Shown piece by piece: positions 4,190 through 10,455 of a DNA stretch of 21,501 bases. The number at the start of each line of letters is the position of its first letter. Position 1 is the stretch's first letter. The stretch spans positions 2,712,418 through 2,733,918 of the forward strand of contig NZ_CP019434.1 of assembly GCF_001975725.1 (NCBI RefSeq), read 5' to 3'. Source of the stretch: Acidihalobacter ferrooxydans (lineage in GTDB: Bacteria > Pseudomonadota > Gammaproteobacteria > DSM-5130 > Acidihalobacteraceae). The position numbers and the translations under genes were made by a program. The notes below the pieces were generated by a model, which was not told the origin of the DNA, ran no database searches, and was given only the letters and a program-made list of their open reading frames with translations.

Positions 4190-4234
4190 TGGCGCGCCCG
4201 GAAGGATTCGAACCTCCGACCACCTGGTTCGTAG
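4190..4234 (-). repeat. attL: duplicated tRNA-Arg 3' end
   Basis: Identical to 10379-10423. The sequences diverge immediately after the anticodon-loop complement TTCGTAG (TTAGGT versus CCAGGT). Confidence 0.93.
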
Positions 4235-4352
4235 TTAGGTGAATCTAGGTTTCATGCGGGTTCAGCCCGAATCACGTAAAACGCTAACCGACTGATTTCC
4301 TTGCATTCGCGTATTCAACCCGTGTCAGCTAGAATTAGCCAAGCGCCGCAAA

Positions 4353-4384
4353 ATTGGCAACAAATTGGCAACAGATTGGCAACA
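4353..4384 (+). promoter_or_regulatory. Candidate integrase arm-type sites, 3 x ATTGGCAACA at 11-bp spacing
   Basis: ATTGGCAACA at 4353-4362, 4364-4373 and 4375-4384, between attL and int. Same motif and spacing occur near attR. Confidence 0.6.
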
Positions 4385-4414
4385 GCCGCCGACCACCTGA
4401 CCCGGAACGCAAAC

Positions 4415-5692
4415 ATGGCAACTGAGAAGCGCCTTTCCCCACTGGCAATCAAGAACGCGAAAGCCACCACCCGCGACCGTTGGCTAAACGATGGTGGAGG
4501 TTTGTTTCTGCATGTCCGGCCATCCGGTAGCAAGGCGTGGCGGCTGCGATACACCATCAACGGCAAGCGGCGAGTCAAGAACCTGGGCGATGCCGGCGTA
4601 GTGAGTGCCCGCGAAGCACGCGACGCCGCGCATAAGGCACGCAAGCTGGTTGAGCAAGGGCTAGATCCGATTGAAGAGGAGGCCGCCGCACGCGAGGCCG
4701 AACGCAAAGAACTGGAACAGCGGCGCACCTTCGAGGATGCCTTGAACCGATGGGCCGAACTTGAGCTATCGAGCCGCAAGGACGGGGGCGCGGAAAGCAT
4801 ACGTGCCCTGCGTAAGGACGTGCTGCCGGTCTTGGGTGGCCGTCTGCTGGACGAAATCACACGCGGCGATGTGCTGGACGCGCTGGACGGGATCAAAGCC
4901 AGAGGCGCCGCCATTATGGCGAACCGCACCTTTGGCGACCTGCGGCAATTTTTTAACTGGTGCGCGTCACGCGAATGGGTGAGCGACAGTCCCTTGCGAG
5001 GCGTCAGAAAGGAAAACATCGGCGGACGGGAAAAAGAACGCGACCGGATACTGTCGGCGGGCGAATTGATAGAGCTACGCGACAAGCTACCGGGCGCGAA
5101 CCTTGAACCGCAAACCGTGGCGGCGGTCTGGATAATGCTTGCGACACTTTGCCGGGTGGGCGAGTTAATTCAAGCCAGATGGGAAGATATCGACCTTGAA
5201 AGCGGCACGTGGAGGATACCGGCGACCAACGCCAAGAACGCACGCGAGCATGTCGTTTTTCTGTCCGACCTTGCGATGCGGCAATTCGCCATTTTGCGCG
5301 AACGTACCGGGTGTGGCGAATGGGTAATGTTGTCGCCTTCAAAGGACGGTCACATAGGCATGAAAACCATCACGAAGCAGATACGCGACCGCATGCGCGA
5401 GGAACCCTTGAGCAACCGCACCAAGGCCGCAGGCGCATTAATCCTGACCGGCGGAGCATGGACACCGCACGACTTACGCCGAACAGGTGCAACGCTGATG
5501 GGTGAATTAGGCGTTTTGGGGGAAGTAATCGAGCGATGCTTAAACCACGTTGAGCCGAGCAAGATACGCCGCACGTATCAGCGGCACGAATACCGGGCAG
5601 AGAAGCGCGAAGCCTGGATGCGGTTGGGTGATTATTTGGATGACCTGCTGACTGGCCGTTCGCGTAAGGTTGTGAATATCCAGCGAGCATAA
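4415..5692 (+). CDS. P4-like tyrosine integrase (DUF4102-type N-terminus)
   Basis: Start placed at ATG 4415 (MATEKRLSPLAIKNAKATTRDRWLNDGGGLFLHVRPSGSKAWRLRYTINGKRRVKNLGDAG). C-terminal boxes: LCRVGELIQARWEDIDLE, TPHDLRRTGATLM, YQRHEYRAEKREAW. The track's upstream start (4301) would translate through the ATTGGCAACA repeats. Confidence 0.93.
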   Translation: MATEKRLSPLAIKNAKATTRDRWLNDGGGLFLHVRPSGSKAWRLRYTINGKRRVKNLGDAGVVSAREARDAAHKARKLVEQGLDPIEEEAAAREAERKELEQRRTFEDALNRWAELELSSRKDGGAESIRALRKDVLPVLGGRLLDEITRGDVLDALDGIKARGAAIMANRTFGDLRQFFNWCASREWVSDSPLRGVRKENIGGREKERDRILSAGELIELRDKLPGANLEPQTVAAVWIMLATLCRVGELIQARWEDIDLESGTWRIPATNAKNAREHVVFLSDLAMRQFAILRERTGCGEWVMLSPSKDGHIGMKTITKQIRDRMREEPLSNRTKAAGALILTGGAWTPHDLRRTGATLMGELGVLGEVIERCLNHVEPSKIRRTYQRHEYRAEKREAWMRLGDYLDDLLTGRSRKVVNIQRA

Positions 5693-6449: not shown

Positions 6450-6543
6450 TTCAGGGGGGTGACATTTCCCCGCTCTGCATAAAAAAGCCCGCGAATCGCC
6501 GTGTGCAATGCTTGACCCGTGTTCAATCAACAGGGGTCAAACA

Positions 6544-6747
6544 ATGCAAACTACGTTCGATCAGAACCGAATTATCCGCAACAAACAAGCCGCTGCCTTC
6601 CTGGGCGTTTCGGTTGCGACATATTGGCGACTTGTTCGTGCGGGCACGTTGCCGCAGCCGGTCAAAATCACGGCTCAAATAGGCGGCCAGCCGCTGCACG
6701 TGCTTGAGGAATTTCTCGAGCGCCTGAGCGCCGGGGGTGAGGTATGA
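6544..6747 (+). CDS. AlpA-like / excisionase-type HTH regulator
   Basis: MQTTFDQNRIIRNKQAAAFLGVSVATYWRLVRAGTLPQPVKITAQIGGQPLHVLEEFLERLSAGGEV, an MerR/AlpA-type winged helix pattern. It overlaps the next gene by 4 nt (ATGA). Confidence 0.8.
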   Translation: MQTTFDQNRIIRNKQAAAFLGVSVATYWRLVRAGTLPQPVKITAQIGGQPLHVLEEFLERLSAGGEV

Positions 6748-7181
6748 CCGCCCCGATTGACCGCGTGCTGCCATTGCTCGACGGCGTTCGTCAGACCGGC
6801 CCAAACCGATGGATTGCACGCTGCCCGGCCCATGCCGACAAAAGCCCGAGTCTGAGCATCCGCGAGGCCGAGGATGGGCGCCTTCTTGTGTACTGTTTTG
6901 GTGGTTGCGAGGCCGAAGATGTGACCGCCGCGCTTGGCTTGCGAATGGCCGACCTGTTCCCCGAACGCCCGCAGTACCGGCCCGGAGACAGGGCACAGGA
7001 GCCGCGCATTTCGCTGACCGACCTCGTTGATCTGCTGGCGCATGAGGCATTAATAGCCTACGTCGCAGCAGCTGACGCGGCGCACGGAAAGCCCATATCC
7101 AACGAGGACGCCGACCGCGCAGCCCTGGCCGCGCAACGCATCCGGACGGCTGTTGATTATGCGCGAGGGTACCCACGATGA
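6744..7181 (+). CDS. CHC2 zinc-finger (primase N-terminal type) protein
   Basis: 145 aa with 'WIARCPAHADKSPSLSIREAEDGRLLVYCFGGCEAEDVTAALGLRMADLFP', the CPxH...CFGGC CHC2 pattern. It overlaps the downstream start by 4 nt. Confidence 0.85.
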   Translation: MTAPIDRVLPLLDGVRQTGPNRWIARCPAHADKSPSLSIREAEDGRLLVYCFGGCEAEDVTAALGLRMADLFPERPQYRPGDRAQEPRISLTDLVDLLAHEALIAYVAAADAAHGKPISNEDADRAALAAQRIRTAVDYARGYPR

Positions 7182-8899
7182 GCATACTTGGCCAACTTGA
7201 ACGCGCTGCGCAGGCACGCGCCAAAGCCTCAAGCGTTATCGACGCATTGGCCGACCGCGACGACCCGGAAACCGATGCAGCCGAAACGATGGACGCGTTC
7301 CAGGATTACGAGCGACTAGCGCAGGACGAACGGACGACCGAACCGCCCAAGCCCGAACAGGAACAGGGTGGCGCCGCAATCGAACGCCGAGCGCAGACCG
7401 TCGAACGGACCGGAAAGCCAAGCACGCCACCCGCGCCGCTGCCAACCGGGCTGCCACCTGTCGAGAAGTTCGATCTAGCGCTGTTGCCGGAAAGTCTAAG
7501 GGAAGCATGCGGTGACGCGGCCCATCGCATGCAATGCCCGCCCGATTTCGTCGCAGTTGGGTACATGGTGGCGGCGAGTTCCGCGGTTGGGCGCATCGTG
7601 GGCATCAAGCCAAAACGCCGTGACGACTGGCTTGTGGCGCCGAACCTTTGGGGCTGCGTCGTCGGCAGACCGTCCGCCCTGAAAACCCCCGCGCTTTCCG
7701 AAGCGCTGAGGCCGCTAAAGGCGCTTGAGGCCAAAGCGCGGGAGCAGTTCGCGAAGGAACGTCGGCAATTCGAGACCGCGCTTCAGTTGCACGAATTGAA
7801 AATGTCGAGTGATCGAAAAAAAGCAGCCGCCGCCATTGCCAAGGGTAACACCGCTGAGGCCGAAAACATTTTATTAGGGTCGGGAACAGAGCCTGAAGCG
7901 CCCACATGTCGGCGATTCATCGTCAACGACACCACGGTCGAAAAGTTGGGCGAATTGCTGGCCGAAAATCCGCGCGGGCTGCTGATGTTTAGAGACGAGC
8001 TAGCCGGGTGGTTTTCTTCACTCGACCGCGAATATGCGACGACTGACCGGGCTTTCTATCTTGAAGCGTTTAATGGAAGCGGCAGCTTCGTCTATGACAG
8101 AATCGGGCGCGGGACGGTTCACATTGAAGCGGCAACGGTGTCCTTACTGGGTGGAACGCAACCGGGACGACTGTCCGCGTATCTGCGCGGCGCGATTAAG
8201 GGCGGCGCAGGCGATGACGGGCTTGCGCAACGGCTTCAACTGTTGGTGTGGCCCGATCCGGTGAAATGGGAACACATCGATGAGTGGCCGAACGCTGACG
8301 CCAAGCGCGAGGTGGTTCGCGTGTTCGAGCACTTGGTTGATCTAAACCCGGAAGAGGCGGGGGCAACGAAAGTAGAGTACGACGCCATCCCTACACTGCG
8401 GTTCGACGACGGCGGCCAGGAGGCCTTTGACGGCTGGTACAACGCTCACATGAAGCGCCTGCGCGATGAGGACTTGCCGCCCTACCTTGAGAGTCACTTA
8501 GCAAAATACGCGAGCTTGATGCCTAGCTTGGCGCTGATCGACCACCTTTCATCGTTCCGAACTGGCCCCGTTACGGAGGAATCAGCGATTCGAGCCGCCG
8601 CGTGGTGTGAATACTTGGAGAGCCATGCCGTCCGGGCCTATTCGCCGATGGTGACGGGGGCCGTCACCGCTGCTGAGCGGCTGTTGAAAAAAATCAAAGC
8701 GGGCGAACTCGGCTCTGCATTTACGGCGCGGGATGTGTACCGGAAGTGCTGGTCAATGCTGACCGACATCGAAGATGTGCGCGAGGCCATCGATCTACTG
8801 GTGGATTATGGGTGGCTTGTCGCGCAATCCATCCCAACACGTGGGCGGTCGGCGACCATCTTCGAGGTGAGCCCTGCCGCATCCAAGGGGGGTGAATGA
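7178..8899 (+). CDS. DUF3987-like protein (putative primase-helicase/ATPase associated with mobile elements)
   Basis: 573 aa with PPDFVAVGYMVAASSAVGRIVGIKPKRRDDWLVAPNLWGCVVGRPSALKTPALSEAL, VEKLGELLAENPRGLLMFRDELAGWFSSLDR and GSGSFVYDRIGRGTVHIEAATVSLLGGTQPGRLSAYL. It overlaps the next ORF by 4 nt. Confidence 0.8.
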   Translation: MSILGQLERAAQARAKASSVIDALADRDDPETDAAETMDAFQDYERLAQDERTTEPPKPEQEQGGAAIERRAQTVERTGKPSTPPAPLPTGLPPVEKFDLALLPESLREACGDAAHRMQCPPDFVAVGYMVAASSAVGRIVGIKPKRRDDWLVAPNLWGCVVGRPSALKTPALSEALRPLKALEAKAREQFAKERRQFETALQLHELKMSSDRKKAAAAIAKGNTAEAENILLGSGTEPEAPTCRRFIVNDTTVEKLGELLAENPRGLLMFRDELAGWFSSLDREYATTDRAFYLEAFNGSGSFVYDRIGRGTVHIEAATVSLLGGTQPGRLSAYLRGAIKGGAGDDGLAQRLQLLVWPDPVKWEHIDEWPNADAKREVVRVFEHLVDLNPEEAGATKVEYDAIPTLRFDDGGQEAFDGWYNAHMKRLRDEDLPPYLESHLAKYASLMPSLALIDHLSSFRTGPVTEESAIRAAAWCEYLESHAVRAYSPMVTGAVTAAERLLKKIKAGELGSAFTARDVYRKCWSMLTDIEDVREAIDLLVDYGWLVAQSIPTRGRSATIFEVSPAASKGGE

Positions 8900-9405
8900 T
8901 GGGTCGGTACTTGGAAAAAATTCGCGAAAACGCCCAAAACCGCACTGACAAAACTGACAAAAGCCCCCTTGCCGCAACTTCTGTCAGTTCTGTCAGCGCC
9001 CAATCCGGCCATTTTCAGAAAAAAAACGAGGCCCCTCCGATTCATGGGATGACGGCGCACGAGGAAGCGAGCATCAGGGCCTGGTTGGCGTACATCGAGG
9101 AAACCGACCCTGCAATCGTCGCCGAGGTTCTGACCCGATGCCGCCGGATGCCTGACGCACGGGCCTACTTCCTGCGGCGGGCAAAAGAGGTTCCACAAAC
9201 AGAACCCGACCACGCGGTGACCTGCGGGGCCTGCCGACACTTCCAGCGGACCGAGCACCCGCACCTGGGGCATTGCGTCAGAGGCGAGCCGGAAGCAGCC
9301 GCTGGGCTTTGGGATAGTGACCGGCGCATGTGCCGTGTGTTCGAGCCTGTGGACCGCGACGAGAACCGACATTCTGGCAGGCAGGACCACCCCAAGCCCG
9401 CGTAA
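8896..9405 (+). CDS. Hypothetical protein with C-terminal Cys cluster
   Basis: 169 aa, start overlapping the DUF3987-like gene. C-terminus 'VTCGACRHFQRTEHPHLGHCVRGEPEAAAGLWDSDRRMCRVFEPV' gives a CxxC...C...C putative metal-binding cluster. The N-terminus contains a palindrome-encoded peptide. Confidence 0.7.
   Translation: MMGRYLEKIRENAQNRTDKTDKSPLAATSVSSVSAQSGHFQKKNEAPPIHGMTAHEEASIRAWLAYIEETDPAIVAEVLTRCRRMPDARAYFLRRAKEVPQTEPDHAVTCGACRHFQRTEHPHLGHCVRGEPEAAAGLWDSDRRMCRVFEPVDRDENRHSGRQDHPKPA
8942..8999. repeat. Palindromic repeat copy 1 (intragenic)
   Basis: Arms GCACTGACAAAACTGACAAAAG (8942-8963) and CTTCTGTCAGTTCTGTCAGCGC (8978-8999), imperfectly complementary, with a 14-nt loop. Confidence 0.85.
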
Positions 9406-9469
9406 CGACGCAGAGCGGATGACGCATTACGCCAAACCGGCACGAACTTACCATTACGGAGACTTACCA

Positions 9470-9883
9470 ATGGCAAAAAAAATCGTTACCCTTCAAACAC
9501 ATATGCGCCGCAAGGAGGCCGTCAAGCTGCGGCTGGCGGGCCTGAGCTACCGGCAGATTGGTGATCGGCTCGGCATTAGTCACGTTGCCGCGCTGAACCA
9601 TGTTCGCGCCGTGCTGGATGAACTTCGGTCTGAGACCGCCGAGACCGCCGAGCAGATTCGCCGAATCGAGTTAGAGCGCTTGGACTGCGCGACCGCGTTA
9701 GCCATGCGCATGATCGACCGGGGCGAGCTGGCCGGTATTGATCGGCTCATCAAGATTCAGGAACGGCGTGCCCGGTTGCTTGGATTGGATGCTGCCGAGC
9801 GGGTGGACGTTTCGACGCAGGAGATTCCGACCGTCATCATTGCCGAGCCGGTGAGTCCGCGACTGCCTGATACGAAGCACTGA
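9470..9883 (+). CDS. HTH protein resembling small terminase subunit / sigma region 4-like proteins
   Basis: 137 aa from ATG 9470: MAKKIVTLQTHMRRKEAVKLRLAGLSYRQIGDRLGISHVAALNHVRAVLDELR... then 'IRRIELERLDCATALAMRMIDRGELAGIDRLIKIQERRARLLGLDAAE', a motif resembling phage/plasmid small-terminase-like proteins. The start was chosen over 9317, which overlaps the upstream gene. Confidence 0.6.
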   Translation: MAKKIVTLQTHMRRKEAVKLRLAGLSYRQIGDRLGISHVAALNHVRAVLDELRSETAETAEQIRRIELERLDCATALAMRMIDRGELAGIDRLIKIQERRARLLGLDAAERVDVSTQEIPTVIIAEPVSPRLPDTKH

Positions 9884-9948
9884 TTGCTTGAATCTGCACC
9901 GGTGCCGAGTAGCGGATAATCACCGAGGAGAATTTTCCGGGAATGGCC

Positions 9949-10020
9949 GGAATGGGAACTGACAGAACTGACAAAAGTTCGATCCGGGTAACTTCTGTCA
10001 GTTCTGTCAGTTCCCATTCC
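9949..10020. repeat. Palindromic repeat copy 2 (intergenic, long hairpin)
   Basis: Arms GGAATGGGAACTGACAGAACTGACAAAAGTT (9949-9979) and AACTTCTGTCAGTTCTGTCAGTTCCCATTCC (9990-10020): 31-bp stem with one mismatch and a 10-nt loop. It extends imperfectly to 9933-10036. Confidence 0.95.
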
Positions 10021-10182
10021 AAGCATTTCCGTAAAACACGCCCCGGTAGCCATCCGGCACCATTCGCCGCCTAGACGCATTTTGCGTACACCGTACAAGG
10101 CGAATGCCCGCCAGCCGTACCCTAGCCTACCTTTCGCGTGATAGGCCCACAGACACCCCGCTACGGCGGTCTGGCGGCCTGT

Positions 10183-10199
10183 TTGTCGGCAACCGACAA
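10183..10199. repeat. Short perfect hairpin
   Basis: TTGTCGG-CAA-CCGACAA. Confidence 0.7.
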
Positions 10200-10251
10200 G
10201 GATTGCTTGATAGCCATTCAGCGCCGCGCCTGACCGGGTGGGCGGACAGCG

Positions 10252-10291
10252 ACCAAGGGCTTGCACGGGCTTAAACGAAACAGCCCTTGGT
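10252..10291. repeat. Inverted repeat near the attR end
   Basis: ACCAAGGGCT (10252-10261) and AGCCCTTGGT (10282-10291), perfect 10-bp arms. Confidence 0.7.
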
Positions 10292-10299
10292 GGCGTTCA

Positions 10300-10378: not shown

Positions 10379-10455
10379 TGGCGCGCCCGGAAGGATTCGA
10401 ACCTCCGACCACCTGGTTCGTAGCCAGGTACTCTATCCAACTGAGCTACGGGCGC
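10379..10455 (-). tRNA. tRNA-Arg (ACG)
   Basis: Reverse complement GCGCCCGTAGCTCAGTTGGATAGAGTACCTGGCTACGAACCAGGTGGTCGGAGGTTCGAATCCTTCCGGGCGCGCCA folds as a full cloverleaf with encoded CCA and anticodon loop CTACGAA. Confidence 0.96.

Follow-up and report, generated by a model that had tools for sequence, protein, structure and literature searches.

What are two closely related palindromes doing in a genomic island of only 6.19 kb? The question is raised by a 21,501-nucleotide stretch of the Acidihalobacter ferrooxydans genome (called the window throughout), in which the island sits in a tRNA-Arg gene and is bounded by an exact 45-bp repeat (4190-4234 = 10379-10423). Copy 1 of the palindrome (8913-9022) and copy 2 (9927-10036) are built from a 9-bp unit, CTGACARAA, present in both orientations. 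Copy 1 follows the gene for a 573-amino-acid helicase of the DUF3987 (YfjI) family (7178-8899, + strand; Pfam DUF3987, E 5e-88), which is proposed to be an initiator that binds an origin. Judging from the sequence comparisons described here, copy 1 probably serves as the replication origin of the excised island, the likeliest of the roles considered for it.

Two palindromes built from phased units

The two copies, each about 100 bp long, share one plan: two CTGACARAA units, or iterons, on one strand face two on the other. In copy 1, the + strand units occupy 8945-8953 and 8954-8962 and their inverted counterparts occupy 8979-8987 and 8988-8996, beginning 46 bp past the helicase stop codon in a pattern that can be written '46> 55> 83< 92<'. 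The inner units are 16 bp apart, with 14 bp of these unpaired, and A-tracts stand beside the site on the top strand (8915-8920 and 9023-9030). Copy 2 has its units at 9959-9967 and 9968-9976 (+) and at 9993-10001 and 10002-10010 (-). Of the 31 positions in its arms (9949-9979 and 9990-10020), 30 are paired, with a 10-nt loop between the arms, and extending them to 9933-10036 gives 41 pairs in 47. The right side of copy 1 (8976-9016), when reverse-complemented, matches the left side of copy 2 (9939-9979) at 35 of 41 positions.

An initial annotation of this DNA had described two related long palindromes with two phased CTGACA units per arm, a 31-bp stem with one mismatch in copy 2 that could be extended to 9933-10036, and related flanks. 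The palindromes are real, and every one of its numbers was reproduced. Its statement that they flank the last two genes of the island holds for one copy only. Copy 2 is indeed intergenic and follows the last gene, 44 bp past the stop codon of a gene for a small-terminase-like (TerS-like) protein and 342 bp short of position 10379, where the attR core begins; once the island is excised and circular, copy 2 would stand about 570 bp upstream of int. Copy 1, however, lies inside a gene, occupying the 5' end (the first ~35 codons) of ORF169 (8896-9405, + strand), an open reading frame for a Cys/His-rich protein whose start overlaps the helicase stop codon (ATGA). The N terminus of this protein is palindrome encoded, with the arms translated as TDKTDK...SVSSVS.

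How unusual are such sites? All eight CTGACARAA units in the window (at 8945, 8954, 9959, and 9968 and, on the - strand, at 8979, 8988, 9993, and 10002) fall within the two copies, as 9-bp-phased, inward-pointing pairs. Shuffled versions of the window hold 0.16 on average, and none of 100 attained eight. A search for palindromes with arms of 20 nt and up to three mismatches turned up only three places in the window, namely, both copies and 6504-6548 (described below), and none in 10 shuffles. As a single strand, copy 2 folds at -38 to -39 kcal/mol (z of about -10.5 to -11 versus shuffles), and copy 1 folds at -15.4 kcal/mol on the + strand and -23.5 kcal/mol on the - strand, far better than shuffles.

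Strong hairpins at gene ends could, of course, be RNA elements (a terminator, an attenuator, or a small RNA), and two related copies in inverted orientation, 1 kb apart, could be a mobile palindrome resembling a miniature inverted-repeat transposable element. A regulatory RNA and a mobile palindrome were both among the alternatives offered by the initial annotation, and both are now disfavored. Neither copy has a T-run terminator, and no Rfam family fits: at both palindromes, Rfam returned only generic microRNA and long noncoding RNA hairpin models, the best at 44.9 bits and all below their gathering scores. No further copies occur within the 21.5-kb window. A mobile element would not hold a fixed place after the helicase stop codon, as the units do across unrelated contigs, and the units also covary with a residue of the helicase (both points are taken up below). 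It is thus extremely unlikely that the palindromes are RNA elements or mobile sequences.

Recurrence beside DUF3987 genes and covariation with the helicase

Is the arrangement peculiar to this island? When the hairpin was sought beside DUF3987-like genes elsewhere, phased inverted units were found to follow DUF3987 genes in dozens of unrelated contigs. Three comparative samples, independent of one another, bear on this. The first consists of loci encoding homologs of ORF169, taken from genome contigs and a few metagenome places. Nearly all of these loci carry a 9-bp-phased palindrome just 3' of a DUF3987 gene and within the 5' part of the ORF169 homolog, the units differing by group (GCGACA, GCTACA, CGCACAAT/CGCAGAAT, and GCGGACG). 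The ORF169 homologs are 52 to 64% identical to the window's protein over the aligned C-terminal part (58 to 78% of the query), while the helicases are barely related to the window helicase (E 0.12 and 0.009). ORF169 has therefore been shuffled between helicase lineages, L002 and L003 being among the loci concerned. As related ORF169 proteins carry other units after distant helicases, the class of iteron follows the helicase lineage and not ORF169.

The second sample came from a scan of viral and metagenome contigs with the DNA motif alone (CTGACARAACTGACARAA), which retrieved 240 loci. A DUF3987 homolog (24 to 50% identity) is encoded in 57 of them. In 39 of the 53 loci where the 3' end of the helicase gene is on the contig, CTGACA/TGTCAG units in both orientations lie no more than 330 bp past its stop codon, and the typical layout, '58> 67> 84< 93<', resembles that of the window. 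The third sample, retrieved by the helicase protein alone, has the same layout, in most of its loci immediately 3' of the helicase gene: an A-tract, two units, a spacer, two inverted units, and an A-tract. The 5-nt cores seen here are CTGAC, CCGAC, CCTAC, CTGCA, CTGCC, CCCTC, CCTTC, CCCCC, GCTAA, and GTGCC, each followed by an A-rich spacer. A strict automatic rule assigned an iteron class in 48 of 74 loci, and several of the others show visible palindromes.

The site is also found on plasmids. On an Acinetobacter plasmid, the CTGACA palindrome is intergenic and lies directly 3' of the YfjI gene, and on Bartonella plasmid pBT01, GTTTTGAAGG iterons flank an AT-rich stretch after the toprim-YfjI gene. 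On a 10.7-kb Rhodovastum plasmid, phased CGACA units form an inverted repeat of 27 nt immediately 3' of the stop codon of the DUF3987 gene, the sole gene on that plasmid annotated with a replication-type product. GC skew on pBT01 was considered as independent evidence for an origin and was dropped because this plasmid also has a RepC replicon. In the closest relative (L284), the helicase is 55% identical, and the palindrome is again present 3' of the helicase gene.

Do these comparisons leave room for packaging (pac) sites, which the initial annotation also offered as a reading of the palindromes? The protein that would recognize them is the TerS-like one, whose gene stands between the two copies. 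A pac site is commonly found within a terS gene or beside it, and the copies enclose both ORF169 and the terS-like gene, whose product, a 137-amino-acid helix-turn-helix (HTH) protein, resembles small terminase subunits. The motif, however, travels without a TerS-like gene. Neither ORF169 nor TerS-like homologs were found in the 57 helicase-bearing loci of the second sample, and over 50 loci, plasmids included, have the palindrome after a DUF3987 gene but lack any TerS-like homolog. L284 has the palindrome and yet a different downstream gene; the DUF5681 protein that it encodes in the TerS-like position has no similarity to the TerS-like protein. With the sequence of the palindrome also covarying with the helicase, a packaging function is very improbable.

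What part of the helicase might read the repeats? Residues ~505 to 566 (8690-8875, + strand) are predicted to form a C-terminal winged-helix domain. An AlphaFold2 model of residues 470 to 573 has a predicted local distance difference test (pLDDT) score of 87 and the order helix-strand-helix-helix-strand-strand, and its best neighbors in Foldseek are the winged-helix DNA binders MarR, PadR, and ROK, all of them weak matches (E > 1e-3). A PDB sequence search with the helicase and the TerS-like protein gave no useful matches. Published work on one DUF3987 family member established it as a 5'-3' helicase that forms oligomers and has a small C-terminal domain (PMC11724360). Homologs of the window helicase are abundant, with 5301 below E 1e-20, and many carry a fused Toprim, Prim-Pol, or RepB primase domain.

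Covariation was scanned over 433 alignment columns in 45 nonidentical helicases with an assigned downstream iteron class. The best predictor of iteron class is R522 (codon 8741-8743), in the motif FTARDVY-R-K, with an adjusted mutual information (AMI) of 0.65, compared to 0.39 for the next column. When this column is set against nucleotide 3 of the core, the AMI is 0.80 (next, 0.20; z = 15). All 32 loci with arginine at 522 have G as the third core nucleotide, and the 13 loci with lysine, glutamine, leucine, or aspartate all have C or T. Mapped onto a helicase-core tree, the iterons switch between G and non-G 11 times and residue 522 switches between Arg and non-Arg 11 times, at identical tips. 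The matched switches include pairs that are 82 to 90% identical in the helicase core, such as L305 (CCTAC, Leu) and L301 (CCGAC, Arg), with 90% identity, and L324 (CCCCC, Lys) and L317 (CTGAC, Arg), with 88%. That R522 alone predicts the core, with 11 matching switches on the tree, argues strongly, on computational grounds, that the helicase reads the repeats with its own C-terminal domain. The island's DUF3987 helicase thus very probably binds the iterons of the palindromes, and it would do so via its C-terminal winged helix. The leading idea of the initial annotation was a replication signal linked to the CHC2 and DUF3987 genes of the island. It is strongly supported, because the units follow DUF3987 genes in dozens of contigs and covary with this winged-helix residue.

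Origin, operator, or hairpin

At what level is the site conserved? Open reading frames that cross the palindromes use at least two frames (LTKLTK...SVSFVS or TDKTDK...FVSFVS). As the downstream open reading frames are read in different frames, it is the palindromic DNA that is conserved and not a peptide. On the top strand, a tract of five or more A's is found no more than 55 bp upstream in 31 of 66 distinct palindromes (47%) and no more than 55 bp downstream in 28 of 66 (42%), against a background of 6.5%, while T-tracts around the same palindromes stand at 3 to 5%. Because the A-tracts share the top strand on both sides, the otherwise symmetric site has a direction, and this points to a directional feature at the DNA level, such as bending or easy melting. 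The AT content is 0.50 to 0.54 in the palindrome cores and 0.44 to 0.52 in their flanks, compared to 41% for the island.

Might the palindromes act instead as single-strand hairpins, giving entry to a primase or helicase in the manner of ssiA/ssiB of RSF1010 or the stem-loop of plasmid pRN1? The folds are very stable, both arms change together between iteron classes, and the pRN1 origin requires stem integrity. Arm mismatches are mostly transitions, and G.T pairs result in 31 cases for the bottom strand and in 15 for the top, though this bias could equally reflect selection against a stable mRNA hairpin in the overlapping gene. The same count, with 38 other mismatches, was tried as a sign of a strand-specific hairpin and rejected as too weak and as confounded by the coding strand and by ascertainment. 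The pattern of conservation fits a hairpin poorly, in that the core is fixed within a class whereas spacer positions vary between arms without compensation, and the stems hold 38 transversion mismatches. The loop ranges from 4 to ~60 nt across loci, and some loci (L077 = L295, and L333) have direct arrays only, in which hairpin formation is impossible. Recognition as a single-strand hairpin is therefore improbable; it would still make the palindrome an origin, the one difference being whether single-stranded or duplex DNA is recognized. The direct arrays of L077 = L295 (38 to 160 bp past the helicase stop codon) and L333 repeat a 54-bp sequence three times in direct orientation, with a CTGACAAAACTGACAAAA doublet in each repeat, and are a direct-iteron version of the palindrome site.

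How does the site compare with known origins? In phage-inducible chromosomal islands (PICIs), such as the Staphylococcus aureus pathogenicity islands (SaPIs) and EcCICFT073, experimentally proven origins lie immediately 3' of the rep or pri-rep gene and contain two iteron sets (PMC6092414). The window likewise has a site with two iteron sets directly 3' of its proposed initiator gene, in a small island with an integrase and an AlpA-like protein. PICIs are phage-dependent islands (PMC6092414). Their iteron sets flank an AT-rich stretch, whereas those of the window are inverted and 10 to 14 nt apart, with a center that is not AT rich and A-tracts on the outside. The window also differs in that its proposed initiator is a DUF3987 helicase and its site is embedded in the next gene.

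A second parallel is pRN1, in which a ~100-nt stem-loop located 54 bp after the gene for a primase-helicase-winged-helix protein is required for replication and is functional when moved (PMC4234260). The window palindrome is also ~100 nt long and ~50 bp past a helicase gene whose product has a predicted C-terminal winged helix, and similar stem-loops follow the primase-helicase genes of phages such as BIP-1. However, the pRN1 helicase belongs to superfamily 3 and carries a prim-pol domain, unlike the DUF3987 helicase. The pRN1 stem-loop is conserved in structure only, with no iterons identified, whereas the 5-nt cores of the window type are conserved in sequence within classes.

The initial annotation had likened the two palindromes to ori and crr of satellite P4. 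In this small integrative satellite, ori and crr are two separated clusters of the same iteron, bound by the C-terminal winged helix of the primase-helicase alpha. The functional resemblance stands, but the likeness ends there. Pfam finds only DUF3987 in the 573-amino-acid helicase, which is not of the alpha type. The island contains no P4 type I iteron (TGTTCACC); the window has two matches, at 1697 and 13237, and both fall outside the island. The second site of the window is not conserved elsewhere and is lacking in the L284 contig.

The PICMI satellites of Vibrionaceae (phage-inducible chromosomal minimalist islands) are ~6 kb long and encode int, alpA, and a DUF3987 or DUF5906 "primase" needed for replication (PMC10803314). 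No origin has been defined for them; fis is a mandatory marker, integration takes place beside fis, and terS is lacking (PMC10803314). The window island shares the size of ~6 kb, int, DUF3987, and an AlpA-like protein (a match under the Pfam curated cutoff). It differs in its integration site, a tRNA-Arg gene with a repeated 45-bp att sequence, and in carrying a TerS-like gene, and Pfam gave no Fis-type match among the island proteins. A last comparison is with phage lambda and the iteron plasmids. The lambda ori lies inside gene O, where the initiator-binding repeats are translated as a low-complexity peptide, and specificity is set by the match between initiator and iteron. The lambda iterons belong to the initiator's own gene, whereas those of the window occupy the 5' end of the following gene. 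The design of the window palindrome is undescribed among DUF3987 helicases, and a literature search found no published link of DUF3987 or YfjI with iterons or an origin.

Binding by the helicase could also serve regulation. Are the iterons operators only, through which the winged helix of the helicase controls its own operon, ORF169/terS, or int, with the origin elsewhere? Rep proteins of iteron plasmids autoregulate through inverted repeats, and copy 1 overlaps the start of the next gene. Distal doublets are found 70 to 80 bp upstream of the helicase or primase start in L115, L252, L268, L269, L091, and L077 and beside int in L122, L162, and L010-L012 (GCTACA group). The universally conserved site, however, lies after the helicase gene and not before it, A-tracts flank it, and its position is that of the proven PICI and pRN1 origins. 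No promoter-like site was found near either copy. A purely regulatory role is on balance unlikely, and regulation and origin function can coexist.

What, then, is copy 2? Distal doublets occur in the window and in 18 of the 57 helicase-bearing, motif-retrieved loci, at varied places. Among the ORF169-family loci, only L028 and the GCTACA group yielded second sites, which in the latter lie just 5' of int. On this distribution, copy 2 is best described as a putative accessory site for the same helicase and not as a conserved partner of copy 1. It could act as an auxiliary cis-replication site (crr-like), in copy number control by pairing with copy 1, or in regulation.

Several points weigh against copy 1 as an origin read by the helicase. 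The iteron classes used in the covariation scan were set by our own pattern rules, and many of the CTGAC loci were retrieved via the motif itself. Identity over the whole winged helix carries no signal (0.38 within an iteron class and 0.36 between classes), and R522 sits at the end of the first HTH helix, outside the canonical recognition helix. The center between the iteron sets is short (14 and 10 nt) and, unlike that of PICI origins, not AT rich. The distal sites often lie 70 to 80 bp upstream of a helicase or primase gene, as in autoregulation, and nothing comparable to a second copy lies downstream on the 5.2-kb contig of L284. The yfjI gene of E. coli K-12 CP4-57 has no iteron palindrome 3' of it, so the feature is not universal in DUF3987 and K-12 offers no ready model for it. 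Finally, Pfam and pairwise comparison revealed no recognizable catalytic primase or Toprim domain among the island proteins, and without a recognizable catalytic primase domain, autonomous replication of the island is uncertain.

If copy 1 is nevertheless an origin, how might it fire? The iteron consists of the 5-nt core CTGAC and an A-rich 4-nt spacer, with a 9-bp period and two units pointing inward from each side. Helicase subunits would dock on the inverted iterons through the winged helix, and the inverted arrangement would yield two facing assemblies, one per arm. The A-tracts, supercoiling, and possibly cruciform extrusion (with 10- and 14-nt loops) could then open the site and give access to a single strand, onto which the 5'-3' helicase would be loaded for replication. 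Priming may be assisted by the CHC2 protein together with a host or helper primase, the latter being needed because the island has no Toprim domain. That the purpose of binding is to fire an origin, that loading is symmetric, and that hairpin extrusion plays a role are steps we infer from the design of the site.

The island, its genes, and what an origin would mean

What else does the island carry? Its left end is attL (4190-4234), a 45-bp direct repeat equal to the 3' part of tRNA-Arg. The tRNA-Arg(acg) gene itself (10379-10455, - strand; ARAGORN and Rfam tRNA) marks the other end, the 3' 45 nt (10379-10423) being the attR core. Just inside attL, at 4350-4385, three tandem 11-bp repeats, ATTGGCAACA(A/G), lie 30 to 65 bp 5' of the integrase ATG (4415) and may be arm-type integrase sites or operator sites. 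The tyrosine integrase (4415-5692, + strand) matches Pfam Arm-DNA-bind_3, Phage_int_M, and Phage_integrase, as well as phrog_1 (integrase; E 5.7e-65). It is followed by a gene for a 228-amino-acid protein with an HTH at its C terminus, which precedes the gene for an AlpA-like HTH protein of the excisionase/regulator type (6508-6747, + strand). The latter matches Pfam HTH_17 and Phage_AlpA, both under the curated cutoffs, and phrog_66, "excisionase and transcriptional regulator." A third strong palindrome, at 6504-6548, includes TTGACCC...GGGTCAA and has 20-nt arms with three mismatches and a 5-nt loop. The start annotated for the AlpA-like gene falls within it, an alternative ATG (6545) with an AGGGG ribosome-binding site lies just 3' of it, and the palindrome may be the operator of the alpA-helicase operon.

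Directly upstream of the helicase lies the gene for a CHC2 zinc finger protein of 145 amino acids (6744-7181, + strand; Pfam Zn_ribbon_DnaG, E 5e-05, under the curated cutoff; phrog_6088, DNA primase, N-terminal part only). This protein is a primase-type zinc ribbon alone, without a Toprim domain, and does not resemble the Toprim protein encoded by the related island L284. CHC2 homologs are encoded upstream of DUF3987 genes in L077, L176, L197, and L236. A stand-alone CHC2 protein (~140 amino acids, without Toprim) recurs directly 5' of CTGAC-class DUF3987 helicases. CHC2 and DUF3987 form a two-gene module without a recognizable catalytic primase.

Downstream of the helicase, ORF169 belongs to a family with 103 homologs, all of which have a palindrome-encoded N-terminal part and a conserved C-terminal domain. 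The Cys/His-rich C-terminal domain (C..C..HPHLGHC..GEPEA.AGLWD..R.C) has no match in Pfam, PHROG, or NCBIfam. Many members begin with MTLSALIKKGGL before the palindrome-encoded part, and the family occurs 3' of DUF3987 helicases from unrelated lineages. The TerS-like protein (9470-9883, + strand) matches Pfam HTH_23 and Sigma70_r4_2 under the curated cutoffs and phrog_645 with E 1e-23. It is 36 to 44% identical to the gene 1 product of Microbacterium phages, encoded at the left end of their genomes, which is mostly annotated as "terminase small subunit." As phrog_645 carries the label "Rnase E" while the phage homologs are mostly small terminase subunits, the label looks wrong.

Two smaller features lie between copy 2 and attR. 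At 10183-10201, there is a small inverted pair, TTTGTCGG-CAA-CCGACAAGG, containing CCGAC. This sequence is one base off CTGAC and serves other islands as an "Arg-type" core; the pair may represent a weak third helicase site or have arisen by chance. At 10249-10294, there is a hairpin with a 13-bp stem (GCGACCAAGGGCT...AGCCCTTGGTGGC) and no T-run. Outside the island, ~1.6 kb from attL and in a region of lower G+C content, lies the gene for an IS630-like transposase (1538-2623, - strand; DDE_3 and HTH domains). Taken as a whole, the island looks like a minimal phage satellite, with a size and content close to those of PICMIs. The nearest protein match in the database comes from Acidihalobacter ferrooxydans.

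What surrounds the module elsewhere? In a gammaproteobacterial metagenome-assembled genome (L001/L002, 1-16516), the ORF169/DUF3987 module stands beside a restriction-modification pair (a ResIII helicase and an N6_N4 methylase). On its other side are a PIN/ribbon-helix-helix toxin-antitoxin pair and a Cas9-Cas1-Cas2 locus, with no integrase nearby. A gene for a type ISP restriction-modification enzyme adjoins the YfjI module in both Bartonella pBT01 (L288) and Acinetobacter pYUSHP14-1 (L289), which suggests a shared cassette.

Overall, few replication genes are commoner in phage satellites, genomic islands, and small plasmids than those for DUF3987 helicases. We lean, by a modest degree, toward an origin class not described before, in which the DUF3987 helicases of satellites, islands, and small plasmids use a phased-iteron palindrome just 3' of their own gene and read its core with a single winged-helix position (Arg for G; Lys, Gln, or Leu for C or T). 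If so, a simple recognition code would set the specificity of these replicons and would have been switched many times between close relatives. The origin would also be routinely written into the first codons of the following gene, giving LTKLTK/FVSFVS and TDKTDK/SVSSVS peptides and thereby explaining the repetitive, palindrome-encoded N termini seen in hypothetical proteins. Should the palindrome prove to be the origin, the cis site of thousands of elements would be readable directly from sequence, and compatibility or specificity groups would be predictable from one amino acid and one base. Minimal replicons could then also be constructed for hosts that are hard to work with, including acidophiles and halophiles such as Acidihalobacter.

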